The notes below the pieces were generated by a model. That model had not been told where the DNA came from and searched no databases. It saw only the letters and a list, made by a program, of their open reading frames with translations. From positions 42,608 to 106,607 of the forward strand of contig CAWAOY010000003.1 in assembly GCA_963783755.1 (NCBI GenBank): a DNA stretch of 64,000 nt. Reading direction: 5' to 3'. Source of the DNA: an uncultured archaeon. GTDB taxonomy: Archaea > Thermoproteota > Nitrososphaeria > Nitrososphaerales > Gagatemarchaeaceae. This document shows positions 27,357-58,875 of the stretch, piece after piece; the first letter of the stretch is position 1, and each line of letters starts with the position of its first letter. The translations under genes were made by a program, and so were the position numbers.

Positions 27357-28683
27357 CTACTGCTTCGCGACTGCCTTCTCTACTTGGCCCTTAATCGTGA
27401 CTTCACGAACGATTCCTGCGGCCACTGTCGAGCCCATGTCTCGCAGGGCGAACCTGCCGAGCTCAGGGAACTCCTTGAAAGTCTCGAGCACTAGCGGCCT
27501 GAGAGGCGTGATCTTCACGATCGCCGAGTCGCCGGTCTTGATCGTCTTGGGCTTCTCTTCCGTCGGCTGACCCGTCCTCGGGTCGATCTTCGCAACGATC
27601 TCGGTGATCGTCGCCGCGACCTGCGCCGTGTGCGCGTGCAGCACGGGCGTGTATCCCGCCGCGATCGCAGTTGGGTGGAAGACGACTATGATCTGCGCCA
27701 GGAACTCCTTGGCGATCGTCGGAGGGTTGGACGGGGGCCCGAGGACCGAGCCTCTGTGGAAGTCGGTCTTCGAGACGCCTCTGAGGTTGAACCCGATGTT
27801 GTCTCCCGCCAACGCCTCCTGCATCGGGGTGTGGTGGGTCTCGATGGACTTGATTTCAGCGGGGAGGCCCTCGGGCATGATGATGACCGGGTCGCCGACC
27901 TTCATCTTGCCGGTCTCTACCCTTCCCACCGGGACCGTGCCGACGCCCGTGATGGTGTAGACGTCCTGGATCGGGACGCGGAGCGGCTTCTCGATCGGCT
28001 TTGGAGGCTCGGTGAACTCGTCGAGCGCCTGGAGCAGAGTCGGGCCCTTGTACCAGGGCATGTTCGTGCTCGGCTTTGCGAGGTTCTCGCCCGTCCAGCC
28101 GGAGATCGGGATGAACCTGATCTTTGTCATGTTGTATCCGACGGTCTTCAGGAGGTTCGAGACGTCCTCCTTCGCCTCGTTGAACCTCGCCTCGGAGTAC
28201 TTCACCGTCTGGTCGTCCATCTTGTTGATGCAGACGACGATCTGGTTGACTCCGAGAGTCTTTAGCAGGAAGGCGTGCTCCCTCGCCTGGCCTCCAGGGC
28301 CCAGCGCCGTGTCCTCCTCTCCCTTCTTCGCGGAGACGATGAGCGACTGCCGCGTCGGCCTCTGAGGCGCCGGTGATCATGTTCTTGATGAAGTCGCGGT
28401 GCCCGGGAGCGTCGATCAGCGTGTAGAAGTACTTCTGCGTCTCGAACTTTTGGAAGGCGAGGTCGATGGTGACTCCTCTCTCCCTCTCGTCCTTCAGCTG
28501 GTCGAGGACCCAGGCGTACTTGAAAGAGTCCCCAGCGCCGGTCTTCTCGCTCTCCTTCGCGTACTCCTCGATCGTCCTCTCGTCTACTGCTCCAAGGTCG
28601 AAGAGGAAGTGACCCATGCTGGTGCTCTTTCCGTGGTCTACGTGACCAGTAACAATCAGGTTCAGGTGTGGTTTGTCTGCCAT
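27357..28683 (-). CDS. tuf: translation elongation factor EF-1 alpha, 1 frameshift (extra G near 28347)
   Basis: Text: [21 protein letters not shown]...[22 protein letters not shown]...[25 protein letters not shown], then in the next frame LIVSAKKGE...INKMD...[10 protein letters not shown]...[24 protein letters not shown]...[17 protein letters not shown]. Confidence 0.97.
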
Positions 28684-35650: not shown

Positions 35651-38285
35651 CTCGGCCGAGCCGATGACCCTGTCCAGGTTCACCGGCCTGCCGTGGTCGG
35701 ACTTGGCCGGGTCGATGCCGTCCTCTCCGTAGAGGAACTGGATGACGTTGCCGTGTGGGGTCCCTGACGGTGAGGTCGTACTCCACGCGGAGGTGCTCCA
35801 TCGCGTTGACGAGCCTCCTCTGCATGTAGCCGCTCTGCTGCGTCCTGACCGCCGTGTCGACGAGCCCTTCCCTGCCTCCCATCGCGTGGAAGAAGAACTC
35901 GGTCGGGGTCAGCCCGTCCCTGTAGTTTCTCTTGACGAAGCCCTTGGCCTCGGGGGCAGAGGTCGTCCAGGGGGAAGTGGCTGAGCGACCTCCCGCGGAG
36001 GCCCTTCTCGATCCTCTTCCCTCTGACCGATTGCTGCCCGAGGGCGGCGGTCATCTGCCCGAGGTTGAGGCTCGAGCCCCTCGCGCCGGTGCGGGCCATG
36101 ATCACTCCCGAGTTCTCTGTGGAGAACGACCTGTCGGCTATCCTGCCCGCCCTGTCTCTTGCCTTTGACGAGCTCGTTCACGATGTAGAACTCGAGGGAG
36201 CCCTCAGGCGAGAGGCCTCTGGTGAGCGGGAGCGTGCCCGCTCTTGTACTTCTTGATGAGGTCGTTGCACGTTGTCGTATGCTTCCTTGAGCGTGTCGGC
36301 GATCTTGCCCATCGCGTCCTCGGAGAGCTTGAGCTCGTCGTATCCGTAGCTGAATCCCCGCCTGGTGATGTATGTCCTTGAGGACCGAGAGTATGGAGTT
36401 GAGGAAGCGCCTCGCCTCGTCGTTGCCGTAGTCCTTGGCGATCGCGGTGGAGCAGGCTGTCTGGCTCCTCTGCGCCGATGGCCGCCTTGTCGATGACTCC
36501 GGAGATGAGCTCGCCGTCCTTGATGACGACGTCGTTGGCCTGCCCGGTCTTGCGCCTTGCCCCACTTTGAGGTGAGCACGAAGTTCATGTCCTTCGGGAG
36601 GAAGAGCGAGAAGAGCTGCTTGCCCGTGTACATCGGGTTGGCGCCCTTGATCTTCGGCTCGGGGAGGTCGCCGTGCGTATCCGCCCTGCGAGGGCGAGGT
36701 TCGAGAACTGCTCGGGCGTGAGCATGGTCTCGTCTCGCGTGAGCAGGTAGGCGCCGGTGAGGAAGTCCCTGATCGCGCCGATGATGGGCCCGCCGTACCT
36801 GGGCGAGAGTATCTGGTCCTGGACGCGCATCAGCATGAGCGCCTCGGACCTCGACTCCTCGCTCTGAGGGACGTGGAGGTTCATCTCGTCGCCGTCGAAG
36901 TCCGCGTTGTAAGGAGGGCAGACGGACGGGTGGAGCCTGAAGGTCCTGTAGGGGAGCACCCTGACGGAGTGCGCCATGACCGACATTCTGTGGAGGGACG
37001 GCTGCCTGTTGAAGAGGACGATGTCCCCGTCCATCAGGTGCCTCTCGACGATGTACCCTGGAGCGAGCGAGTCGGCGAGCGCCTTCCTGTCGCTCGCGAA
37101 GTCGAGCCTGATCTTGACGCCGTCGGGGCGGATGACGTAGTTTGCGCCTGGGTGCTCGAACGGGCCCTTGATGACCAGCTTCTTGAGCGACTCGATGTTC
37201 CACGCGGAGACCTTCTCCGGGATGGTGAGCTTCTTGGCGACCTCGAACGGGATCCCGACCTCGCCGATGTCAAGGCTCGGGTCAGGGCTGATGACCGTCC
37301 TGCTGGAGAAGTCGACCCTCTTGCCCGAGAGCGAACCCCTGAACCTGCCCTCCTTCCCCTTGAGCCTCTGGCTGAGCGTCTTGAGCGGCCTCCCGGAGCG
37401 GTGGTGCGCCTGAGGGATGCCCGAGACCTCGTTGTCGAAGTAGGTCGTGACGTGGTAGTGGAGCAGGTCCACGAGGTCCTGGACGATGAGGTGCGGCGTG
37501 CCGGACTCCTTCGCTCTCCCTGACCCTCTGGTTGACCCTGAGGATGTCGACTATCTTGTGGGTGAGGTCGTCCTCGGACCTGATGCCCGACTCTAGCGTG
37601 ATCGATGGCCTGACGGTGAGCGGCGGGACCGGGAGGACCTGGAGGACGAACCACTCGGGCCGCGCGACCTTGGGGTTGTAGCCGAGCAGCTCGAGGTCCT
37701 CGTTGGTGATCCTCTCGAGCCGCTCCCTGATCGCGCCCGGGAGGAGCCGCGTCGCTCCGCCTTCCTCCGTGATCTCGTGGAAGATGGTCGGCTTTGTGAG
37801 CTCGATCTGGTACTGCTGCTTGCCGCAGTGGGGGCAGAGCTTGACCTTCTTCGCCTTTGTGAGTATCTCCTTCGCGATCTCCTCCTTCATCGTGGGGGTG
37901 AACTCGGTGATGTTCTGGAGCCTGACGCCTGTAGGCGTCGAGCTCCTGCTGGGAGAGGAGGATCCTGCCGCAAGTCCTGCAGGTCGCCTGGATCATCTTG
38001 TTGATGTCGGAGACGAACGCCATGTGGAGGACGGGCTCGGCCAGCTCGACGTGCCCAAAGTGGCCAGGGCACCTCGACGCCGTGTTCCCGCACGTCCCGC
38101 ACTTCTGTCCTGGCTCGAGGGTCCCGAGCCGCGAGTCCATCAGGCCGCCCTGGACGGGCATCCCGTCCTCGTCGTAGGTCTCGGGCTGGGTTATCTCCGC
38201 GACCGAGTACTTTCGTGATCTCGGTCGGCGAGAGCAGGGCGAAGTCGATCGCGCGTATCGTTCTTAGAGCTTCTTCCATGGCCAT
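35651..38285 (-). CDS. rpoA1: DNA-directed RNA polymerase subunit A' (Rpo1N), at least 7 frameshifts; 3' boundary approximate
   Basis: Text: [62 protein letters not shown] (Zn site), [59 protein letters not shown]...[17 protein letters not shown] (catalytic NADFDGD), [46 protein letters not shown]. Confidence 0.95.
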
Positions 38286-38302
38286 CTTATTTCACCAACC
38301 CC

Positions 38303-41300
38303 CTACACCGCGTCCTTCAGCCTGAGCCGTGGGCGCGATGTTCAGGCTCATCATCTCCTGGAGCAGGAGCTTGAACGCGTAGGCCACGACGACCGTGGAT
38401 ATCTTCGCCTGGTCTCCGTCGATCTTGCAGGCGTACTTGCGCTGCTTGGCGTCGTAGTAGGCGATGAGCCCGCACTTTTCGCAGACGTTGATCTCGGTCT
38501 TGTCGGCCTCGTCGAGGAGCCTGTCCTTCAGGACCATCGAGGCGCCGTAGGCGATGAGGCAGTCCCTCTCCATCTCTCCGAACCTGAGGCCTCCTCCCCG
38601 CGCCCTGCCCTCGGTGGGCTGCTTCGTGAGCATCTGGACCTGGCCCCTCGCCCTGGCGTGGATCTTGTCCGCGACCATGTGGTGGAGCTTCTGGTAGTAG
38701 ACGACGCCGATGAAGACGTCGACCGCGAACTTCTTCCCGGTCTTTCCGTCGTAGAGGACCTCCCTTCCGGTCGGCTCGAAGCCCGCTCTCTGCGAGGATC
38801 TTGCTCATCTCCTCGGGCGTCTCGCCCGCGAAGCCCGGTGCCGTCGGCCGAGAAGCCTCTCAGCGAGGCGGCCTTGCCCGCGATCGACTCGATGAACTGG
38901 CCGACGGTCATCCTCGAAGGGAACGCGTGCGGGTTGATTATGACGTCGGGGACGACGCCGTCCGCGGTGTAGGGCATGTCCTCCTGGGGGACGACCAGTC
39001 CGACCACTCCCTTCTGCCCGTGGCGTGACGCGAACTTGTCCCCTATCTCGGGGGTCCTCATGTCGCTGCACCCTGACCTTGTACATCTTGCCGCCTTCGA
39101 CGTTCTCGGTCATGAAGACGGAGTCGACGACGCCCGTCTCGGTGGGCCTGACCGCGACCGACGTGTCGCGCCTGTACGGGCCCTTGATCTCGAACTCCTT
39201 GTACTCCTCCATGAACCTCGGAGGGCTCGTCCTGCCGATGACCGACGTCTCCGCCGGTGACCTGTGGCCTCGTGCATGACGACGCCGTCGCCTTCGAGGA
39301 GGCGGTAGAACTTCTCTCCGCTGTAGCCCCTGATGTTGGACTCGGCCGAGGGGACCTCGAAGGTGTCCCGCATCCCGCCCAGGTACTGCTTCGACTCGGC
39401 CTCGTAGAGCCTGTAGAAGAAGGAGCGAGCGAACCCGCGCTCGATGCTGGACTTGTTCATGATGATGGCGTCCTCGATGTTGTAGCCCTCGAACGAGAGG
39501 ACTGCGACCACGGCGTTGGTGCCGAACGGCCTCTCGTCGATGTTGAGCAGCTCGGTGCGTCTTGGTCTTGACCATCGGGGACTGCGGGTTGACCAGCAGG
39601 TGCTGCCTCACGAATGTCGAGAGCGGGAACGTGGGGGTGGAGAAGCCGAGGCTCTGCTTCGCCATCGCGGACTCGTAGGTGTTCCTCGGCGACTGGTTGT
39701 GCTCAGGATAGGGGATGATCGATGCGGCGATCCCGAACATGGCTCCCGGGTAGAGCTCGAGGTGGGTGTGCTTGCGTGGTGGCCTCCTCTGGCGACATCG
39801 CGACGAGGCAGTTCTCCTCCTCGTTGGCGTCGATGCAGCTCGACGATGCCCCTCTCGACGAGGTCCCTCCAGGTGAGCTCGTCCGGCGGCGACCTTCGTC
39901 GATCATCTCCTGGGTGAGGAGGGGCTTGCCGTTCTCGACGACGATGAGCGGCCGCATGACCCTGCCCGCGCTCAGGCTGATGTAGAGCCGCGAGTAGCCC
40001 TTCTTGTTCGTCGGCGCGTAGTAGCAGGACGCTCGCGCTCGGGTTGATCTGGCCCTCCCTGCGGAGCTTCCTGAATGCCTTGGCGAGCCGTTCCCCGTCG
40101 TCCACGTAACCGATGAACCTCCCGTCCATGAATATCTTGCAGCCCTCGAGCGCGAGCTTCTCAGGGATGTCGCGGATCGGCTTGGCGCCGAGCTCCCAGA
40201 GTCTCTCCTCGACCTCCGCGGGCGGGACGCTGACCGAGATGGTCGCGGAGAGGGCCAGGTTCTTGACGAGCCCGCAGTTGACGCCCTCAGGCGTCTCCGA
40301 GGGGCAGATCCTCCCGAAGTGGGTCGCGTGGAGGTCTCTCGCCTCGAAGTTCGGCTGCGACCTGCTCAGCGGCGACTGGATCCTCCTGAGGTGGCTGAGG
40401 GTGCTGCAGGTAGTTGGTCCTGTCCAGGAGCTGGGTGACTCCGACCTTGCCCCTTCCCCAGTTGCCCGTCGCGATGGCGTTGTTGAGCTTGTCGGTGATG
40501 ATGCCCGTCCTGATGGCGGCGCCGACCACGTTGCCGCCCCTCTTCTGGCCTGCCCTCTCGAGCTGGTACTTCATGTCCCGGACGAGGTTCCTGAACGAGG
40601 TGCGGAAGAGGTCGGCGAGCATCTGGCCTGCGAACTTGATTACCTTGTTGCCGTAGTGGTCCTTGTCGTCCGGCTCGATCCAGCCCAGCCTCAGCTCGAG
40701 GAGCTTGCAGACGGCCTCGCCGAGGAACATCGCCTTGTCGTACCTCTTGTCGTCGGACTTGCCGAGGTGCGGGAGGAAGCCCCAGTCGAGCATCGACTGG
40801 GCGCGCTTGATCCTGAACTCCTCGAGCATGCCGTGGGCGACCCTGTTGCCGATGTAGACGAGCGCGTCCTTCTCCGTGGGCGCCTCGTTCGCCTTGTCGA
40901 AGGAGACCTCGAGCAGGTCCTGGATCTCCGGCTTTGGAGAGACCGCGTTGGCGATGTCCTTGTCGGACTTGAAGCCGAGCGCCCGCATGATTATCACGAA
41001 CGGGAGGTCGACCGGGCAGCTCGGGCATCTTGACGTTGATCGAGCCGTCCTGCTTCAGCGTCGCCTCGAGCTTCGACCTGTAGCCGACCACCGAGGAGTA
41101 GACTCTTGCCTTGTAGGTGGCGACGCCGCCGGCCTTCTCCATGTCGACGAGGATCTTGTTCGGGGAGAGGTCCTCCAGCCCGACGATGACCCTCTCCGAA
41201 CCGTTGATGATGAAGTAGCCTCCTGGGTCGTTCGGGTCCTCGCTGGACATCGACCAGCTGCTCCTTGGTCATCTTGGAGAGCTGGCAGAGGTCGGACTTT

Positions 41301-41674
41301 ACCATGACGGGCAGGTCGCCGATGTGCTGCCGCGTCGCCTCCCGCGACATGCCCTCCTCCTCGATGGTCATGTCCAGGTAGATCGGCGAAGAGTAGGAGA
41401 GGTTCCTGAGGCGGGCCTCCATCGGGAAGATGTTGCTGACGGAGCCGTCGATCTCGACGATCCTCGGCCTGCCGAGCTCGACCCTTCCGAACTTGACCTT
41501 GTACGGAGTGCTGACCGTCTCGATCTCCGTCTCGCTGATCTCGTCTATGATCGACTGCAGCCCCTTCGCTATGAACTCGTTGTAGCTGTTGAGGTGCTGC
41601 CTGGCGACTCCCTCCCTCTGGAGGATGTCCTGCAGGACTGCCCAGGAGTCAAGCTGCTTTGTTGTTATCGCCAT
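38303..41674 (-). CDS. rpoB: DNA-directed RNA polymerase subunit B (Rpo2), unsplit single gene, at least 8 frameshifts
   Basis: Text: [129 protein letters not shown]...[51 protein letters not shown]...C. B''-type and B'-type segments are contiguous, with no internal stop/start junction. The likely true C-terminus [12 protein letters not shown] needs a 1-nt correction (stop at 38303-38305). Confidence 0.95.
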
Positions 41675-50161: not shown

Positions 50162-52329
<2,168 letters not shown>

Positions 52330-52458
52330 TTCGACGCCTCCCCTAGGTCCGATTTGTTATAATCCCTTCGAGGGCTGCGGCGAGACGCCGCTCGGGCGCG
52401 AAGAGTGGGCCGGCGCAAAACTGTTAAGCGGAACTCAGGGCGGTTGGGGCGCAGGTGC

Positions 52459-52543
52459 GCGGGGGTCGCCAAGCCTGGTCAACGGCGTGGGGCTTAGGAC
52501 CCCATCCCTTAGGGGTTCGTGGGTTCGAATCCCACCCCCCGCA
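52459..52543 (+). tRNA. tRNA-Leu, anticodon TAG, class II (long variable arm), no encoded CCA
   Basis: Folded by hand. Acceptor GCGGGGG/CCCCCGC; D arm GCC-AAGCCTGGTCAAC-GGC; anticodon arm TGGGG-CTTAGGA-CCCCA; variable arm TCCCTTAGGGGTTC (CCC/GGG stem); T arm GTGGG-TTCGAAT-CCCAC; discriminator A. Confidence 0.9.
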
Positions 52544-52649
52544 CACATTTTGGGCGGAAATCCCTGATCATTCAGAATTTCGAGTCCATCTTGCAAAGGT
52601 TGTTCAACGTGCTATTCTTCTCGATTGAACAGTTGTATCCTTTAGCACG

Positions 52650-52907
52650 ATGTCCATCGATGAACTAGCATCAAGAGCAACCCCCTCCTATCGTGAATTC
52701 AGAAGATTGACCGCACATTGTCCTAAATATGGTGGAGGCATGATTCTCAAAATTGCCTCAAATCCAGCGAGACATGGTGGAAGAAAATTGAGCATAATAC
52801 TGAGTTGTAGCGAGAACTGCGATAGACAAATTTGGAATTCCGATGCAGACGAAACGGAGCTTACCCATTGGTGGCTCGATGGCTCAAGGAACCTTGTACG
52901 CCCGTGA
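52650..52907 (+). CDS. hypothetical protein (85 aa), possibly Cys-cluster / zinc-binding
   Basis: ATG ORF in low-GC DNA: ...RRLTAHCPKYGGGMILKIASNPARHGGRKLSIILSCSENCDRQIW... No family recognised. Confidence 0.3.
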   Translation: MSIDELASRATPSYREFRRLTAHCPKYGGGMILKIASNPARHGGRKLSIILSCSENCDRQIWNSDADETELTHWWLDGSRNLVRP

Positions 52908-53229
52908 AGTCTATCAATACGACAGACCGCCTTCCGACCACCTAAGCGTCGTGCCCAGAGGGGAGGTCAATCATATCTCCAGCACCGACCTTCCACTTTG
53001 GTCCATCATCCATCACCCCAGCCATTTGACCCGAGAGCACATACCCGACGTGATGGGCTTGGCAACTTTCTGTTTTGGCAATCGGCTTAACACATTCAGA
53101 CCACTCCAGCCAGCATAGTAAGTGCCCCGTCCAATCGTGAAGTACACCGACCTTAACGATTTCGAGCTTACCGTTGGGGAACTTTCTCGTCTCATCTGGA
53201 GTCTTTGCATTCTTCTTGCTTACGGCCAA
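52861..53229 (-). pseudogene. cupin-domain protein interrupted by an in-frame TAG at the position of a conserved Trp
   Basis: ORF 52942..53229 ends ...VGAGDMIDLPSGHDA-TAG. The same frame continues VVGRRSVVLIDFTGVQGS... to TAA at 52861-52863. Cupins of this type read GHDAWVVG...V.IDF, so GCT-TAG-GTG looks like TGG mutated to TAG. Confidence 0.6.
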
Positions 53230-53340
53230 TTTCTAACCTCCACTTTCCTTCTGCGATTCATATAAGCGTTATTTCACGAGAGATTCTGACCCAGCATTGG
53301 GAACACAAGCGATAAAAGATTGACTTGTTGAGCAAACGTC

Positions 53341-53592
53341 ATGCCAAGATACATCGATGTGCACAAGAACGTAAAAGGGGTCAAACTGAACGACGTGGCC
53401 GAGGCGCACGCCAAAGACCTCAAGGTGCAAGGAAAGTATGGGGTCAAATTCCAGAAATACTGGCTTGACGAAAAAGAGGGAACCATATTCTGCCTCTCTG
53501 ACGCACCAAACAAAGAAGCGATATCAAAGGCACACAAGGAAGCCCACGGTCTGCTGCCTCAAGAAACTTTTGAGGTTCAAGAAGGCAGCTAG
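53341..53592 (+). CDS. DUF4242-like small protein (83 aa)
   Basis: Text: MPRYIDVHKNVKGVKLNDVAEAHAKDLKVQGKYGVKFQKYWLDEKEGTIFCLSDAPNKEAISKAHKEAHGLLPQETFEVQ. It fits the remembered DUF4242 pattern (MPxYM..H...G.T...VA.AH..DL.VQ...GV....YW.D...G..FCL..AP......V H.EAHGL). Confidence 0.5.
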   Translation: MPRYIDVHKNVKGVKLNDVAEAHAKDLKVQGKYGVKFQKYWLDEKEGTIFCLSDAPNKEAISKAHKEAHGLLPQETFEVQEGS

Positions 53593-53658
53593 ACGCCCCA
53601 CACTTTCTTTTCTCAGACCGAACCACCAAGCATTTCCACCCAACATGCTTGGTCATCG

Positions 53659-53681
53659 TCCCACCCCCCCGCACACCTTTT
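53659..53681 (+). repeat. direct copy of the tRNA-Leu 3' end (att-like core)
   Basis: TCCCACCCCCCCGCACACCTTTT here, against TCCCACCCCCCGCACACATTTT at 52530-52550 in the tRNA and its flank. One extra C in the C-tract and one substitution downstream. Confidence 0.75.
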
Positions 53682-53687
53682 GACCTC

Positions 53688-54569
53688 TCAGCCGACCGAA
53701 CGCAACAGGATGTGGCGGACCGTGTACTCGTTGATTCTTGAAGGAGAGCCTTGAGTACTCGTCTCTTGCACCATGTGTTCGTCGAGGGTGGCTTTTCTGA
53801 CCCCGAGAGTGACCAAATCGACGTAGATGTCTCCCTTGTATTGGTCAACACCCTCCGTGACGCTCTCCTTACCGCTGGAATCTGGGATGACCATCTTGAC
53901 CTTGCTGTCGCCAGCGTCGTATCCGACCAGCGCGCAGGGAGCTCCATCGACAACACTGACTCCCTTCAATTCAAGGCTTACCTCGCCATTCTGAAAGGTA
54001 GATCCGGGCTTGATCTCATCGACGAACTTGACCGAAGCCTCGATGAAAGACGCGGGATGGACAATCCTTTGACCTATCTCCTTGAGGTCCTGGATTCCTT
54101 TTCCAAACTTCATCGGTCGTGTGAAAATGTCGTTGAAGCTATGGAAGTCAAGGAAATTGACGTAAGAAGCGTAGCGGATGCTGAAGGGTAACGCCTTCTC
54201 CTGATCGTCTGTTAGGTTAACGAATTTCTCTTGCGAGATGCCCCAGAGAGGCCCGCGTTCGTCTCCGGACAGTGTCGGGTTGAACGTGTAGGTCCAGTTT
54301 CTGAGTTGAGGGATGGTAACGGGCGAACTGTCATTGGTTTGTAACTGAAGTTCCGAGACCGCATATCGGTCAAAGTTTCCCGCCGGCGATGTCTTCGGGT
54401 CATAATGGAGGTTTAGGGTATAGGATTCTGTCCCGACTCTCCTTCCGTTCAACTGGAAATGGACATACCTTGTCTGCATACGGAAATCTTGGGCAATCCG
54501 CTTTCTGTCGAAGGAAAAGTCAAACGGACCTCTGAGATCTACGGGTGCCCAGTCCACTGTAGTCGTCAT
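53688..54569 (-). CDS. hypothetical protein (293 aa), apparently all-beta, no recognised family
   Basis: Intact ATG ORF with normal composition: MTTTVDWAPVDLRGPFDFSFDRKRIAQDFRMQTRYVHFQLNGRRVG...FQNGEVSLELKGVSVVDGAPCALVGYDAGDSKVKMVIPD... It is the only gene between two tRNA-end repeats. Confidence 0.55.
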   Translation of the reverse strand: MTTTVDWAPVDLRGPFDFSFDRKRIAQDFRMQTRYVHFQLNGRRVGTESYTLNLHYDPKTSPAGNFDRYAVSELQLQTNDSSPVTIPQLRNWTYTFNPTLSGDERGPLWGISQEKFVNLTDDQEKALPFSIRYASYVNFLDFHSFNDIFTRPMKFGKGIQDLKEIGQRIVHPASFIEASVKFVDEIKPGSTFQNGEVSLELKGVSVVDGAPCALVGYDAGDSKVKMVIPDSSGKESVTEGVDQYKGDIYVDLVTLGVRKATLDEHMVQETSTQGSPSRINEYTVRHILLRSVG

Positions 54570-54706
54570 TATCTCGTGGACAATTCATTCGTCGATTTCC
54601 CTTAATAAGAGAGGACGACAATTCTCATTCTTGAGAAAGGCGGGCATCTCGGCTCTTCGCACACACCCGCCAGCTTAAGGAAGAACGGCAATCAAGGTTA
54701 CTATCA

Positions 54707-54830
54707 GGTGGGATTTGAACTTAAAGTTCAGGTCGCACCCCCCGCACACCTTTCACATGAGATGGTCCGGAAATCGCGCAACCCGTTGGGATTTGAACTC
54801 AAGGTGCGGTTGCCCAACTCCGCCACTCAA
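54707..54830 (+). repeat. tRNA-end-derived structured repeat: one full unit (54707-54784) and a partial second unit (54785-about 54830) head to tail, 78-nt period
   Basis: Unit: GGTGGGATTTGAAC-TTAAA-GTTCAGGTC-GCA-C6-GCACAC-CTTTCACATGAGATGGTCCGGAAA... The next GGGATTTGAAC begins exactly 78 nt later. Confidence 0.8.
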
Positions 54831-54968
54831 ATCACCCCGGCTTCGTGCGTGATGTGCTACCGAGAAGACAGGCGCGACCCGCTCGGCAGTGAACGAGCCA
54901 CCACGCACCGAACTGGCAACGGCTGGGACAGTCCTTCGGGAGAGCGATAGCTGAGTTCGTTTCGCTTG

Positions 54969-55577
54969 CTATCGCGCCCGCGTCGGGGGGATTCTCCGAA
55001 CCACGACCCACCGACGCATCGCAATCTTGCGCACCTTCCGGAACCCCGTCTTCTCGAACATCCTCAAGGTCCCGCTGCACAGGAAGGAAGAGGAGGTCCT
55101 CTCCTCCGTGTAGTCCTCCGGATAAGCCTCGACCGTTCCGCCGCCGAGTTGGGCGATATATCGAAGCGCTTCGCGGAGGGCGAGGGTAGCAATACCTTCT
55201 CCCCGGCGTTCCCGGTCGATGAAGAAGCAGGTGATGCGCCAGTCTGGAAGTTTGAGCAGTCCCTCCTCGTAGGTCTTCTTGCTCCGTATGTTGGGGAGTT
55301 CCGCGGTAAGGCCGAACTGGCACCACCCGACCGCGTTCTGGCCGTCGAAGACGAGAGCGGCACGCGCCCGCCCTTCCCGCACTAACTCCTCTTTCATCGC
55401 TCGGTATGCCGCCGCACCATGTCTCGTTTCCCCGGGCTCGAGATGAAATGAGATGCACCAACACCCGCCGAAGATGCCGTTGTGCTTCTCCACCAGCCGA
55501 GCGAACGCCGGCCAGGTCTCAGGCGTAAGCTGCTTCGATGTGAGAGGCACGGGCCGCGAGGCGCATCGGTTATACAT
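54969..55577 (-). CDS. GNAT-family N-acetyltransferase
   Basis: The C-terminal 202 aa of track ORF 54969..56315, from ATG 55575-55577. Text: ...GGCWCISFH...ALVFDGQNAVGWCQFG...ITCFFIDRERRGEGIATLALREALRYIAQLGGGTVEAYPE...FEKTGFRKV, with the acetyl-CoA motif R-x-x-G-x-G/A. The upstream part of the track ORF is antisense to the next gene. Confidence 0.75.
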   Translation of the reverse strand: MYNRCASRPVPLTSKQLTPETWPAFARLVEKHNGIFGGCWCISFHLEPGETRHGAAAYRAMKEELVREGRARAALVFDGQNAVGWCQFGLTAELPNIRSKKTYEEGLLKLPDWRITCFFIDRERRGEGIATLALREALRYIAQLGGGTVEAYPEDYTEERTSSSFLCSGTLRMFEKTGFRKVRKIAMRRWVVVRRIPPTRAR

Positions 55578-55661
55578 AAGTTGTGAGCGCCCACTCGACG
55601 CTCCGTCTTCATCATCGTCGGTGCCACACGATTCAAGCAGAGATTTATGTAGGGAATACAT

Positions 55662-56375
55662 ATGAAAATCGTCATGGTCAGATTCGTGCTGATTCCAGGC
55701 GCGTGGTTGGGGGCGTGGACCTGGAAGGATGTGACCCCGAGCCTCGAGAAGAAGGGCCATTCTGTCTATCCGGTTACATTGACTGGGATGGGCGAAAGGG
55801 TTCACCTTGCCTCGAACGATGTCGGCATGGAGACGGCCACACAGGATGTCTTGAATGTGATAAAGTACAATGAACTCAACGATTTCGTGCTGGTGGGGCA
55901 CAGCTTCGCGGGTAAAGTGGCGGCCGCCGTGGCGGACCGCACACACGAAAAGGTGGAGAAGATCATTTACGTTGATGCGTTCCGGCCAGAGATTGTGAGG
56001 GACCCTCAAGGCGGATTCGACCCGACTCGCGAGTTCGGGCCACCACCTGGGGGCGGTAATGCGATTCCCCTCACCGAGGAAATTATCCACCGAATCGGTC
56101 GGGATGTCAAAGGCCGCAACCGGAAATGGATGATGTCCATGGCGACGCCCTGGCCAATCAAACTTGCGAAAGACCCGATCACTCTGTCGAAGAACTATGA
56201 CGCTATGAAGGAAAGGTATGTCTTTTGCAGTCTCAGCGGTGACTCGGTCGACGAGATCATCGCCGGGAAGTGGGGAAAGCTCAACGGTCCCTACAAGGTC
56301 ATAGAGACCGGCCACTGGCCGATGATTACTAAACCTGAAGAGCTGGCCAAGGATTTACTATCCCTGGCCAAATGA
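55662..56375 (+). CDS. alpha/beta-fold hydrolase (esterase-like)
   Basis: Intact 237-aa ORF. Text: FVLIPGAWLGAWTWKDVTPSLEKKGHSVYPVTLTGMGER...FVLVGHSFAGKVAAAVA (G-x-S-x-G)...IIYVDAF...IETGHWPMITKPEELAKDL. Confidence 0.8.
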   Translation: MKIVMVRFVLIPGAWLGAWTWKDVTPSLEKKGHSVYPVTLTGMGERVHLASNDVGMETATQDVLNVIKYNELNDFVLVGHSFAGKVAAAVADRTHEKVEKIIYVDAFRPEIVRDPQGGFDPTREFGPPPGGGNAIPLTEEIIHRIGRDVKGRNRKWMMSMATPWPIKLAKDPITLSKNYDAMKERYVFCSLSGDSVDEIIAGKWGKLNGPYKVIETGHWPMITKPEELAKDLLSLAK

Positions 56376-56403
56376 CATCCAGCAGAAATCAGCAAGCGTC
56401 TTT

Positions 56404-56461
56404 CAGCACAGTTTATTGTGCTGAAGTCGAGCCCCTTCTTGGCTTCATTGGCAAGAGGGGC
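56404..56461 (+). terminator. two consecutive stem-loops downstream of the hydrolase gene
   Basis: CAGCAC-AGTTTATT-GTGCTG at 56404-56423. GCCCCT(T)CTTG...CAAGAGGGGC at 56431-56461. They start 29 nt after the stop at 56375. Function is inferred from position only. Confidence 0.3.
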
Positions 56462-56474
56462 CAGGAGGATGAAT

Positions 56475-56645
56475 CGTGAGTTCGAATCCCATCCTGCACA
56501 TCTTTTGCATGAGCGAGGCGGAGAGTCACAGAATTCGGTGGGATTTGAACTCAAAGTTCGAGTTGCAACCCCCCCCGCATACCCTTCACATGAGACGGTC
56601 AGAAAGTTGCAGAATCCAGGGACTTGAGCATGAATCTCAGTGCTA
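56475..56645 (+). repeat. three head-to-tail tRNA-end-derived units: a diverged forward copy of the tRNA 3' end with its flank (56475-56536), a full structured unit (56537-56616) and a degenerate third (56617-about 56645)
   Basis: CGTGAGTTCGAATCCCATCCTGCACATCTTTT...GGCGGAGAG..CAGAATTCGG compares with tRNA CGTGGGTTCGAATCCCACCCCCCGCACACATTTT..GGCGGAAAT..CAGAATTTCG. Then GGTGGGATTTGAAC-TCAAA-GTTCGAGTT-GCAA-C8-GCATAC-CCTTCACATGAGACGGTCAGAAAG. Then GGGACTTGAGC, 79 nt after the previous GGGATTTGAAC. Confidence 0.8.
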
Positions 56646-56759
56646 GACAAAATACGAAACAAGGCAGCCCACAAATCATTGGTTCTCGCAATCTTTCTCT
56701 TTTGTCCCTATCGTTATGATTAATAGCCGGGGGCTTTCGAAAGAGTCGGCAATCCCCAA

Positions 56760-57163
56760 ATGAAGCCATCCGACATTGCCCCTGATCCGTTCAAGCCCCC
56801 GGCCGACCTAATAGTCGTGACGACGCCGTTCGTATCAGGGTATCATGTGACTCGGGTCGATTGGTGCGACGTTTGGACTAATCGTTAAGATCTCGGGGGC
56901 TTAGGGCAGAACATCTTCGCGTACTTCCGAGCTTGGGGTGGCGGAGAGATCAAGAGTATACACGAATCTCCTGGAGCAAGTGCGCCGCCAAGCCATCCAG
57001 CGGCTCGCCGAACATGCAAGAGGCCTTAGGAGCGAACGCTGTCGTCTCTGTCGGTTTTGACACGTCGGAGATGGGCGGGTCGATGACTGAGGTTCTCGCA
57101 TATGGCACTGCAGTGGTAGTGGAGCCCGATACTTCACCTGCACAGCCTGTCGCGCTCCACTGA
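56760..57163 (+). pseudogene. YbjQ/UPF0145-family (heavy-metal-binding-domain-like) protein, 2 frameshifts and an in-frame stop as assembled
   Basis: Text: MKPSDIAPDPFKPPADLIVVTTPFVSGYHVTRV, then (other frames) GQNIFAYFRAWGGGEIK, then ALGANAVVSVGFDTSEMGGSMTEVLAYGTAVVVEP, the hallmark C-terminal block of the family. It could be assembly error rather than true decay. Confidence 0.55.
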
Positions 57164-57170
57164 TATCTTG

Positions 57171-57285
57171 GCTTGCAATCTGAACTTAAAGTTAAGGTTG
57201 CAAACCCCCCCCCCGCACTAATTTCGTGGCCAAGGCTAACTCCCCACGCGGGTCGCTCCGCGAATCCCCGTTGGGAACCCCCAGC
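57171..57285 (+). repeat. most distal tRNA-end-derived structured unit, with extended hairpin and a C10 tract
   Basis: Text: GCTTGCAATCTGAAC-TTAAA-GTTAAGGTTGCAAA-C10-GCACTAATTTCG...CGCGAATCCCCGTTGGGAACC. The hairpin pairs 12 of 13 positions. The tail resembles GGAAATCGCGCAACCCGTTGGGATTTGAAC of the 54.7-kb unit. Confidence 0.7.
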
Positions 57286-57473
57286 GTGGGACATGGTTTT
57301 GAATTCCATAGCTCATTATATACCGCGGATGCTGTTTGGGGCACCGTCTCATGAGTCGTCCCGCCGACGGCCCCCGAGGAGCAATCGGAACGGGGTGCAG
57401 GATGTCGTGACCGGTGTCGAACCGCTTGAAAGCATTCGGCTAGGCAATCGGCGGGTCGAGGGGAGGCGCTGAC

Positions 57474-58875
57474 TTGAGATTCCAGAGCAAATCCGTGTCC
57501 TCGCTCATCCTTGCGAGCGCAATGTGCTCGGCGCTGCTACTTTCCGCGAACTCTTCGCATGCGGCGGCGTCGATTGTCCTCAGTCCGACTGACCCCGCCG
57601 TCGGCACGGCCTGTGCGAGCTTGGGGGGAGCATGGGACGGCTCGACCAAGTGTACTTTGGGCCGCGACCTGACTCTGAACCCGGGCGATTCTCTGGTTGT
57701 CGACCCCAACGCCAACCTCGCCGTGCCCGCGGGAATAACCCTCACCAACGGCGGGGCGATACAGGACTATGGCACTATCGAGACCGGGACTGGGGGATTC
57801 CTCACCAACTCCGGCAACATCACCGCCTTCATCGCAAACGGGACCCTCATCAACCAGGGGACGATGACTAACGAGCCCAAAGAATCCGTCAACGTCGAGC
57901 ACTCTGGGCAGACATCGGTCGAGGTCGGGGAATTCAACTTCACCAACACCGGGACCTCGACAACCTTGGGACGTTCGTCGATTATGGGAATTTCACGAAC
58001 GGCGCCAAAGCCACCATCACGAACTCGGGCAGTTTCAGCTTCTCGTCCGCCACGATAAACGTCGGGAACTTCAGCGCGCCTCTCGCGACCAACGCCGGGA
58101 CCTTCACAAATCTGCCGACGGGCACTTTCACCGTCGACGGGGCGACCTTCAACAACACCGGGACCTCACAAACCCTGGGGCAATCATAGAGACGCAGAAC
58201 GTCTTCAGCCTCATGGAGAACTTCGGGACGATAACGAGCAATGGGACTATAGCAGACACTAGCTTCATCCGCAACAACGGCACGGTGACCAATGCAGGCA
58301 CGATTGCCACCACCGTAGGCTGCGCTGTCGCCGCGTGCGGATCGCTCGTGAACAACGCCGCCCTCATCAACACTGTCGGAGGCACGATCGAGAACGGGGG
58401 CAACTTCGGAAACAACGTCAACGCGACCTTCACCAACTATGGCAACTTCACCAACGCGCGCGTGTTCATCAACAACCCTAACGCGACCGTCATCAACTCA
58501 GGCACGTTCGTAAGCACGGGCACGCTTACGAACCGCGCTTCGATTTACAACAACGCTTCGATCGCCATCTCGGGCATCGTCCTGAACTCGGGATACATCG
58601 GCAACAACCCCAACGGGACAATCACCAACTCGCGGACCATCACGAACACCGGGAGCATCGACAACCTGGGCGTCCTCACAAACGGTTGCGGAGGCGTGAT
58701 AGAAGGTCCAGGGACCATCTCAGGAAACCCGGTCACGAGTACGACTTCGTGCACGACCGCGACGACCAGCACGCCGGTGCCAGAGTTCCCGACCGAGATG
58801 CTCGTTCCCTTGATGCTTTCGATGTTGATCCTTGTCACATTCCTTACGAGGAAGGGTCTTGGCGGCTCGGCCTAG
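57474..58875 (+). CDS. secreted Asn/Gly/Thr-rich repeat protein (predicted beta-helix) with a PEF-CTERM-like sorting signal, 2 frameshifts
   Basis: Signal peptide MRFQSKSVSSLILASAMCSALLLSANSSHA. Dozens of short N-x-G-x-[IFL]-x-N type repeats (TNGGAIQDYGTIETGTGGFLTNSGNITAFIANGTLINQGTMTN...NNGTVTNAGTIAT...NYGNFTNARVFINNPNATVINSGTFVSTGTLTN). The end is TSTPVPEFPTEMLVPLMLSMLILVTFLTRKG. Confidence 0.75.

Follow-up and report, generated by a model that had tools for sequence, protein, structure and literature searches.

The window analysed here is a stretch of 64,000 nt (contig CAWAOY010000003.1 of assembly GCA_963783755.1, positions 42,608 to 106,607, forward strand) from an uncultured archaeon of the Gagatemarchaeaceae (Nitrososphaerales), and the system in question is an array of short repeated units and small gene segments that lies directly behind a tRNA-Leu gene. 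The tRNA-Leu(TAG) gene (52459-52544, + strand) was identified with ARAGORN and matched by the Rfam tRNA model with 52.7 bits, and it appears to be the anchor of the array, resembling a chromosomal attachment site (attB). A low-GC island begins exactly at its 3' end, with a G+C content of 53.4% (52545-57300) versus 63.4% upstream and 61.6% past approximately 57300. The last bases of the tRNA gene, CACCCCCCGCAC (52533-52544), are referred to as the core and recur at cassette borders. Copies of the core, all on the + strand, are found at segment borders at 52535, 53665, 54738, 56571, and 57209, with a decayed copy at 56493, and they partition the island into three small open reading frames (ORFs), a 293-aa ORF, a GNAT acetyltransferase gene with an alpha/beta hydrolase gene, and a frameshifted YbjQ-like gene. 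With up to one mismatch, GGGATTTGAAC occurs five times where 0.72 occurrences are expected. The array is bordered by a gene for a PALP-family (pyridoxal-phosphate) enzyme and the tRNA gene on one side, and by genes for a secreted repeat protein, a SHOCT-domain protein, and a PadR regulator on the other.

An earlier note made from the sequence alone had described three full structured units, and a repeat search and a covariance model (CM) recovered them at 54707-54784, 56537-56616, and 57172-57218, with a degenerate neighbour at 54785. Each unit consists of a 5' arm GGTGGGATTTGAAC, a loop of TTAAA or TCAAA, a partly complementary 3' arm, a C-tract of 6, 8, or 10, and GCAYAC, and two of the three add the tail CYTTCACATGAGAYGGTC. 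The 5' arm is the reverse complement of GTTCGAATCCCACC in the tRNA at 13 of 14 positions. In all these elements, as well as in the 78-nt period (54707 to 54785) and the placement of the units at gene-segment borders, the description of the earlier note proved correct. Two further neighbours that it listed did not hold up: the one at 56475 has no palindrome and is a direct tRNA-like copy of the T-arm, and the one at 56617 has no hidden Markov model or CM match. In the palindrome, TTAAA separates an inverted copy of the T-loop/T-stem sequence of the tRNA from a direct copy that has decayed. The whole site comprises an 18-nt conserved block, a 12-nt core (12-14 nt at cassette ends), and a 37-nt tail.

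The CM was built from 32 distinct units of 14 loci and run on the 64 kb with filters off. It found four matches, at 54703-54756 (73.4 bits), 56533-56589 (59.0 bits), 54781-54835 (44.4 bits), and 57168-57221 (43.7 bits), all on the tRNA strand and within the low-GC island, followed by the tRNA end itself with 16 bits. The four window units are among the 32 training sequences, so their high scores arise partly by construction, and the informative result is that nothing else scores.

Most cassettes of the family run from a tail of approximately 37 nt through a type-A palindrome with decayed core and the cargo to a palindrome and a core. A second, co-oriented palindrome often stands behind the tail at the start of a cassette, and the joint of two abutting cassettes has the order palindrome-core-tail. 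The window array starts with segment 1 (52545-53661; G+C content approximately 49-52%), whose ORFs are 52650-52907 (+; no family), 52942-53229 (-; a weak cupin fragment), and 53341-53592 (+; SCO4226-like) in the Pfam search. The resemblance of its first 85 nt (52545-52630) to tail plus palindrome is not significant (reached by 90 of 500 shuffles). The next border is a core copy without palindrome, CACCCCCCCGCACAC (53662-53676, +), which forms the left border of the 293-aa cassette and at which homology with three related contigs (L031, L096, and L121) begins. It is the only core in the window that lacks the family palindrome. An unrelated, perfect 9-bp hairpin, ACCAAGCAT...ATGCTTGGT (53626-53654, +), ends 9 nt before it and folds as single-stranded DNA (ssDNA) with -8.5 kcal/mol (z -5.2). 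A 6-bp hairpin (CAATCG..CGATTG) likewise precedes a palindrome-less core at 7045 of L096. Such hairpins could have arisen by chance, could belong to the end of a gene, or could mean that the presence of any hairpin is what counts.

Mobile cassette A extends from core to core (53666-54747), carries the gene for a 293-aa beta-barrel cargo protein (53688-54569, -), and has a palindrome and core at its right end. Its joint with the next cassette is unit 1 (54707-54784, +; CM 73.4 bits, fold z -3.2), a putative junction resembling the attachment site of a mobile element (attP) in the cassette comparison below; it is composed of 5' arm (54707-54720), loop (54721-54725), 3' arm (54726-54739), core (54736-54749), and tail (54750-54784). 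Next comes a copy of the type-A palindrome, GTTGGGATTTGAAC TCAAG GTGCGGTTGCCC (54785-54835, +; CM 44.4 bits), the core of which is decayed. Cassette B has this copy and the tail ahead of it as its left end; in L121 the same pair lies directly 3' of the tRNA. Mobile cassette B (54733-56582) contains this tail and palindrome, a GNAT acetyltransferase gene (54969-55562, -) and an alpha/beta hydrolase gene (55662-56375, +), both recognized by Pfam, then a tRNA-like T-arm fragment, a tail, and the palindrome and core of unit 2. The fragment (56474-56502, +) directly repeats the T-arm and 3' end in tRNA-like form (TCGTGAGTTCGAATCCCATCCTGCACATC; TCGTGAGTTCGAATCCCATCC), its core being decayed, after which a tail-like stretch (56503-56536) leads to unit 2 (56537-56616, +; CM 59.0 bits, z -1.7) with its palindrome (56537-56569), C8 tract and GCATAC (56569-56582), and tail (56583-56616). 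Segment 4 (56617-57171) carries the YbjQ-like gene split by a frameshift (ORFs 56760-56888 and 56933-57163, +; Pfam YbjQ_1, 5.4e-10). Unit 3, the terminal palindrome and last site of the array (57172-57218, +; CM 43.7 bits, z -2.9), has its palindrome at 57172-57204 and a C10 tract with GCAC at 57205-57218. The last 65 nt before the conserved chromosomal flank (57219-57283) hold a weak tail-like remnant (..CGCGAATCCCCGTTGGGAAC..), and the resemblance of 57219-57290 to tail plus palindrome is weak and not significant (34 of 500 shuffles). The flank orthologous to related contig L091 resumes at approximately 57284, past the last palindrome-core. The + frame is open through the units (54708-54950, 56418-56627, and 57173-57472) and gives a repeated peptide, GFELKV.VA.PPAH.SHE.VRK..NP, for which no homologue and no sign of coding were found.

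Several core genes of the window are fragmented or truncated (e.g., 27357-28220, 37034-41674, and 50433-52329), including those for EF-1alpha, Rpb1/Rpb2 domains, and PALP-family and Cys/Met-metabolism enzymes. The pattern suggests a (long-read) assembly prone to indels, not genuine pseudogenes. With many core genes frameshifted, the assembly is error-prone, so the exact lengths of the C-tracts, which are homopolymers, are unreliable and the call of a YbjQ pseudogene is uncertain. Just past the array (57474-58875), a secreted repeat-rich protein with haemagglutinin-type repeats is encoded in two ORFs (57474-58058 and 58213-58875), and 68% nucleotide identity is kept there in L091.

A search for the units was performed in other genomes. 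A scan for the exact pattern with one genome per species gave 63 matches, approximately the chance expectation, among which five or six are true relatives, all of them metagenome-assembled genomes assigned to Nitrososphaerota, Nitrososphaerales, or Nitrososphaeria. Seven contigs from a metagenome scan and further contigs reached through look-ups of cargo proteins added more loci. Altogether, no fewer than 12 independent Nitrososphaerota assemblies (NCBI, ENA, and JGI) contain such units, and the existence of such copies in relatives, on which the earlier note had made its proposal depend, is thereby established. At the nine loci with a visible tRNA-Leu or tRNA-Leu-like gene, all units (30 of 30) lie on the tRNA strand and no more than 7 kb downstream, and in five of the nine the first unit begins 35-39 nt past the tRNA. 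Searches with nhmmer and the CM, run on the 64 kb and on the flanks of the 14 loci, placed every copy in a tRNA-linked array. Two genes serve as anchors: tRNA-Leu(TAG), and a longer tRNA of 99-119 nt that is called by Rfam and missed by ARAGORN. The longer gene is 78% identical to the tRNA-Leu(TAG) of the window and is therefore tRNA-Leu-like; it presumably contains an intron. Both anchor genes end in CCCACCCCCCGCA. A free-standing LAGLIDADG_3 homing-endonuclease-like gene lies divergently approximately 50 nt from the long anchor tRNA (L096 11129-11953; L097 2316-3140) and is absent at tRNA-Leu(TAG) of the window.

The most informative comparison is that with L121, a close relative that shares the upstream gene order of the window: Kdp potassium-transport genes, an AsnC regulator, a Cys/Met-metabolism enzyme, a PALP enzyme, and tRNA-Leu(TAG). 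Backbone identity between the two contigs is 88.96% (9134 bp), against 98.1% for cassette B (1898 bp; L121 9060-10954) and 97.5% for cassette A (1080 bp). The order of the two cassettes is reversed. The window reads tRNA, segment 1, A, B, YbjQ; L121, where B stands directly behind the tRNA, reads tRNA, B, solo module, A, PadR-ABC cassette, 269-aa cassette. At all four A/B junctions, identity begins or stops inside CA-CCCCCC-GCAC, within CACCCCCCGCAC. Just upstream of these junctions, one genome has the genuine T-arm and the other a palindrome arm or unrelated DNA. Cassette A also occurs in L031 (95.4% identity versus 86.3-86.7% in the flanks), preceded there by a solo module instead of segment 1, and in L096 (91.7% versus 78% in the backbone), where the other tRNA gene is the anchor. 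Between L096 and L084, two contigs with backbones of 81-83% identity, a third cassette reaches 92.2% over 1633 bp. Arrays at the same chromosomal place otherwise carry unrelated cargo: the window, L121, L031, and L091 have the tRNA-adjoining PALP-family gene in common and differ in cassettes, as do L096 and L084, which have tRNA and NUDIX flanks in common. These alignments show that recombination inside the core moves whole cassettes in, out, and between positions, and that lineages have recently exchanged cassettes.

A recombinase was searched for in approximately 90 ORFs with Pfam, NCBIfam, PHROGs, PADLOC, and PDB sequences. None of the ORFs tested in the arrays, among the larger ones of the window, and in the flanks of related loci matched an integrase, transposase, or recombinase family, and the gene tables of the 17-21-kb contexts list none either; Phage_integrase and Phage_integr_3 had no match among the array or flanking ORFs tested, and the ORFs tested in approximately 30 cassettes of at least 10 arrays gave no integrase-family match at all. 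A crude tyrosine-recombinase motif regex found nothing. A tblastn search with three integrases that target this tRNA end matched only the tRNA-derived stretch and revealed no integrase remnants. Two candidates were set aside. That cassette A encodes its own recombinase is rejected by the AlphaFold model of its 293-aa protein, which is a beta-barrel with no recombinase fold. Remnants of a split SSV-type integrase around the core, for which the open + frame (..GFELKVQVAPPAHLSHE..) could speak, are unsupported, with no integrase similarity.

Scans of IMG/VR with the palindrome, the tail, or palindrome plus core gave chance matches only. The scan with the bare tRNA end retrieved integrase-bearing contigs of other archaea, all without palindrome or tail. 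Integrase ORFs overlapping the same tRNA-Leu 3' end, GTTCAAATCCCACCCCCCGCA, were noticed at L119 12231-13472, L117 3952-4902, and L120 8694-9623 (IMG/VR). L119 corresponds to the Aeropyrum pernix K1 SSV-type integrase APE_0716.1, in which the attachment (att) site lies within the ORF and reads antisense as ..GWCGGWDLNP..; the 5' arm of the window palindrome encodes the same WDLN on the + strand, which may simply follow from the shared DNA. Archaeal tyrosine integrases do employ this tRNA-Leu 3' end as att site, as the A. pernix enzyme and two Phage_integrase ORFs in IMG/VR contigs exemplify. Tandem re-use of one tRNA site by tyrosine recombinases has been described, and att sites of Thaumarchaeota are short, with a median of 17 bp (PMC6563490).

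Taken together, it is likely that the units are the junction (attachment) sites of tandem cassettes without integrase that were inserted at the 3' end of tRNA-Leu. The tRNA-Leu end would be the chromosomal partner site (attB), and the palindrome-core-tail joint would be attP, with P arm, crossover core O, and P' arm, regenerated by tandem site-specific integration. The 18-nt block GGGATTTGAACTTAAAGT present on both sides of the core may serve as the binding site of a protein on double-stranded DNA and not as a folded hairpin. The cargo-free modules of 78 nt would be 'solo' sites left behind when a cassette lost the cargo enclosed by its two co-oriented palindromes, which explains the 78-nt period. 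As the arrays and their surroundings yielded no recombinase gene, the enzyme must act from elsewhere in the genome; catalysis would most likely be by a tyrosine integrase or an Xer-type enzyme encoded there and supplied in trans. Recombination sites of a cassette-like system had been one of the candidates of the earlier note, and this candidate is strongly supported by the tRNA-Leu anchoring, the variable content, the reordered cassettes, and the breakpoints in the core.

Several observations weigh against this interpretation. The search for a recombinase came up empty, which leaves the enzyme class and catalysis in trans as inferences. Neither circular intermediates nor excision nor empty sites were seen, and IMG/VR contained no integrase-bearing element with the palindrome-core-tail site. 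Not every breakpoint maps to the core, as identity between L096 and L084 in the third cassette rises past the tail, at the second palindrome (from 77% to approximately 95%). The near-identity of L082 and L096 (99.94%) ends where there is no core and no palindrome; the arrays are therefore also shaped by illegitimate deletion or replacement. In addition, an unrelated stable hairpin precedes the core at 53665 and the T-arm precedes the core in the tRNA, which fits recognition of structure.

Recognition of structure is what the first alternative proposes: the sites would be recognized as folded ssDNA hairpins, either in the manner of integron attC sites, where a tyrosine recombinase works on one folded strand, or in that of the subterminal hairpins of IS200/IS605-type elements, which an HUH transposase (a single-strand DNA endonuclease) cuts, inserting 3' of a short target. 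In the latter version, the target would be the CCCCCCGCA end that stands behind a hairpin in both the tRNA (the T-arm) and the cassette. The folding results agree with it in part. As ssDNA, unit 1 folds with -9.7 kcal/mol (z -3.2) and unit 3 with -8.5 kcal/mol (z -2.9), better than shuffled sequences, and the hairpin ahead of the core at 53665 (z -5.2), the T-arm ahead of the core in the tRNA, changes that improve pairing of the arms in a few units (window 57172, L091_2017, and L047), and the small, cargo-only, integrase-free, integron-like cassettes point the same way. The pairing of the stems counted in the earlier note is real, and longer than counted there in unit 1 (13 of 14 positions), but unit 2 is weak (z -1.7) and the copy at 54785 folds no better than shuffles.

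Pairing was examined further over the 32 distinct units of the 14 loci with a 14-pair hairpin, for which the 3' letters were shuffled within columns 500 times. Cells with standard pairs amount to 72.1%, versus 73.0 +/- 0.9% in the column shuffles, 447 of which were at least as high, and the covariation score is 0.142 versus 0.148 in shuffles. When the partner arm is slid out of register, pairing drops to 47% or less. The palindrome is real and in the right register, and compensatory evolution is unsupported. The long stem is formed by approximately 18 of the 32 units and no hairpin by 14. In the 32-unit alignment, sequence conservation reaches at least 90% in the 5' arm and loop, GGGATTTGAACTTAAAGT, and the 3' arm drifts, mainly by A-to-G changes opposite T. 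The conserved trait of the units is the sequence rather than the structure. The selection on a folded RNA or ssDNA that the earlier note had read from three units is not borne out by these values, and its argument for a cassette system, that compensatory change keeps the hairpin, falls with it.

For recognition as ssDNA hairpins, the lack of covariation, the 14 of 32 units without hairpin, and the conservation of 5' arm and loop, the opposite of what attC sites show, are all unfavourable. The AAC/GTT motifs adjoin the loop and not the base of the stem, and no pattern of extrahelical bases is seen. Genes are present in both orientations, some cassettes have two or three of them, and no match to IntI, an HUH/Y1 transposase, or TnpB was found among the ORFs tested. 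We regard recognition of this kind as unlikely.

A second alternative does without a dedicated recombinase. The 78-nt modules would serve as portable homology, and RadA recombination after DNA uptake would exchange, delete, and reorder the segments. The modules are indeed directly repeated throughout the arrays, no recombinase gene was found, one common cassette has its identity step within the module and not the core, and one breakpoint is not site-specific. However, two cassettes have four independent junctions in a core of 12-14 nt with differing upstream neighbours (T-arm, palindrome arm, and unrelated DNA at 53650), and where the sequences upstream of the core differ, the homology left there does not suffice for homologous exchange to be efficient. 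The reordering of cassettes requires excision and re-insertion. Conservation of the inverted T-arm copy and the tail (at least 90%) between backbones that differ by 11-22% would also be left unexplained. Homologous exchange as the sole mechanism accordingly has a low probability in our assessment.

Far less probable is a third group of explanations, in which the units are functional structured RNAs (tRNA-derived small RNAs, or processing or termination signals) or a transposing tRNA-derived short interspersed element (SINE) or miniature inverted-repeat transposable element (MITE). Their near-tRNA length, the resemblance of their ends to the 3' end of a tRNA, their hairpin potential, and the frequent T-run (CTTT/CTTTT) behind the core would suit such a reading. 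A search with Rfam 15 (E up to 1) of 52000-58000 returned only RF00005, the tRNA itself, so the tRNA-derived small RNA family considered in the earlier note found no support, and an RNA is further contradicted by the lack of covariation and, for a role in 3' processing, by neighbouring genes that run in either direction. The MITE/SINE-like element of the same note fares no better: the 64 kb hold no dispersed copies and every unit is co-oriented and downstream of the tRNA, no copies were found beyond tRNA-linked arrays in the flanks of the 14 loci, and on inspection there are no terminal inverted repeats or target duplications except the shared core, the cassette ends not being mutually inverted. 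A casposon-like reading, with terminal inverted repeats and target duplication, was rejected as well, as the ends of cassette A are not inverted repeats on inspection. Mis-assembly or a collapsed repeat, conceivable in an error-prone assembly with many frameshifted core genes, can be dismissed with near certainty, given the same architecture in at least 12 independent assemblies (NCBI, ENA, and JGI), including near-identical cassettes with intact borders.

The cargo of the arrays includes GNAT acetyltransferases, hydrolases, transporters, metal-related proteins, and many unknowns, and the 293-aa beta-barrel protein is the most widespread. The protein encoded at 53688-54569 (-) has no Pfam, NCBIfam, PHROGs, or PADLOC match and at least 161 homologues in Nitrososphaerales and Bathyarchaeia. 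Its AlphaFold model (pLDDT 92.3) shows a beta-barrel round a long helix with weak matches to lipid-binding folds of the LmcA, DUF1329, and lipovitellin/ApoB type (TM approximately 0.3), and from this predicted structure it looks like an uncharacterized family. The contexts of cargo homologues in L107, L108, L110, and L122-L124 contain no units, which indicates that cargo genes live outside the arrays too.

Three contigs showed other arrangements. In L102 (7530-11005, -), an 85%-identical homologue of the 293-aa gene lies among three direct copies of a different tRNA-like 3' end, CCCGTCGGGCCCGCTA (3 matches versus 0.11 expected; no palindrome), and the 293-aa cargo seems to travel with att sites of another specificity there. 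L108, a 539-kb Nitrososphaerota contig, has three T-arm-like tRNA 3' fragments with differing acceptor ends (2358, 3191, and 3567, -) among small ORFs (cupin and unknowns) and may be another island studded with tRNA fragments. In L107 (2800-16400), a 73%-identical 293-aa homologue is found within a 13-kb run of approximately 20 small genes between two DUF6785 genes; this run is rich in toxin-antitoxin pairs (PIN, MazE, RHH) and has no family units or other regular repeats between the genes.

If the interpretation as attachment sites is true, integrase-less cassettes that change position and species at tRNA ends would be a dedicated route for accessory genes in non-marine Thaumarchaeota. The host archaea are abundant in soils and peat, and their mechanisms of gene exchange are poorly known. 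The tRNA gene's own T-arm sequence would have been copied, inverted, and re-used as the recognition part of the attachment site of a mobile DNA. The short, defined site (18-nt block, 12-nt core, and 37-nt tail) could be used as a metagenome probe and as a substrate for recombinase fishing. A farther-reaching possibility, which we put forward tentatively, is that this soil/peat clade of Nitrososphaerota has independently evolved a gene-capture platform functionally equivalent to integrons, with two tRNA-Leu(-like) insertion genes, cargo-only cassettes bearing a composite site of approximately 115 nt that mimics tRNA T-arm and 3' end, and a chromosomal recombinase, possibly of a new type or a re-used host enzyme, that excises, captures, and reorders cassettes and spreads them between species.

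Among known systems, elements integrated in tandem at tRNA or tmRNA genes by tyrosine recombinases are alike in their anchoring at the tRNA 3' end, in direct copies of the tRNA end that bound the segments, and in following the orientation of the tRNA. They are also alike in variable content between conserved flanks, breakpoints at the repeats, deviant base composition, and attP-like internal junctions. Examples are archaeal integrated elements (PMC6563490, PMC8371274), the Dehalococcoides ssrA islands (PMC3146451), and the tycheposon islands of Prochlorococcus, tRNA-anchored and hypervariable, with partial tRNAs (bioRxiv 10.1101/2020.12.28.424599). Such elements carry their own integrase, intact or as a remnant, whereas the arrays described here have none in the ORFs tested or by tblastn. 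The cassettes here are tiny (0.08-3.5 kb, 0-3 genes), and instead of a plain tRNA fragment there is one conserved composite site of inverted-T-arm palindrome, core, and 37-nt tail.

Elements without an integrase of their own are known as well. Cis-mobilizable elements (CIMEs), known with site-specific accretion from streptococci, are flanked by att sites, lack their own integrase, occur in tandem, and use a recombinase from another element or the host. The arrays resemble them in having att-flanked segments without recombination genes of their own, mobility being shown here by the swapped order at 97.5-98.1% identity. CIMEs derive from and adjoin an identifiable integrative and conjugative or mobilizable element with matching integrase, in contrast to the arrays here, which are archaeal and cargo-only and for which no such partner was found in IMG/VR or among the ORFs tested. 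The term CIME occurs in PMC5704250 and PMC7563491. IS200/IS605-type elements have subterminal hairpins at both ends, use a Y1 HUH transposase in cis or in trans, and insert 3' of a 4-5-nt target at many sites. Most cassettes have a palindrome close to each end and were inserted 3' of a fixed sequence, which agrees with this family, but insertion is confined to one 12-nt target beside tRNA-Leu, there is no Y1_Tnp or TnpB among the ORFs tested, and the hairpins are not conserved in structure. For a MITE or SINE, many dispersed copies at unrelated sites are expected, with terminal inverted repeats and target-site duplications in a MITE or an internal promoter and A/T-rich tail in a SINE, and here no copy exists outside the tRNA-linked arrays. 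Integrative mobile elements exploiting Xer (IMEX, e.g., CTX/TLC arrays) lack an integrase and insert successively at dif through host Xer, each insertion regenerating the target. The target here is a tRNA end and not dif, and a role of Xer would be conjectural.

Integrons, among them those that Ghaly et al. 2022 (PMC9668308) described in archaea, are alike in their ordered, small cassettes of accessory genes, an imperfect palindrome beside the crossover, reshuffling, and exchange between lineages, and many arrays without linked integrase exist as clusters of attC sites lacking integron integrase (CALINs). That study of archaea makes no mention of tRNA genes or of Nitrososphaeria (PMC9668308). 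The arrays here differ in that they have no IntI gene or attI and are inserted at a tRNA end. In attC, the structure is conserved, with R/L boxes (RYYYAAC/GTTRRRY) at the base of the stem and extrahelical bases; here the sequence is conserved, the GAAC/GTTC motifs flank the loop and not the stem base in our reading of the unit alignment, and the R''-L''...L'-R' layout is absent. Integron cassettes usually hold one promoterless, co-oriented gene, whereas the genes here lie on both strands and some cassettes have two or three, such as GNAT plus hydrolase, or ABC plus FtsX plus an HTH regulator. Our search of the literature, which was not exhaustive, brought up no account of these arrays or of their palindrome-core-tail site. 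Nearest in concept are CIMEs, hypervariable tRNA-anchored islands of the tycheposon kind, and IMEX. Collectively, the locus shows the defining features of tandem tRNA-site integration except for an element-borne integrase; it lacks the defining features of integrons, yet it behaves like an integron or CALIN. What appears to be novel is a cargo-only cassette array that is anchored at tRNA-Leu, has a conserved, tRNA-mimicking composite att site, and is mobile within and between species.

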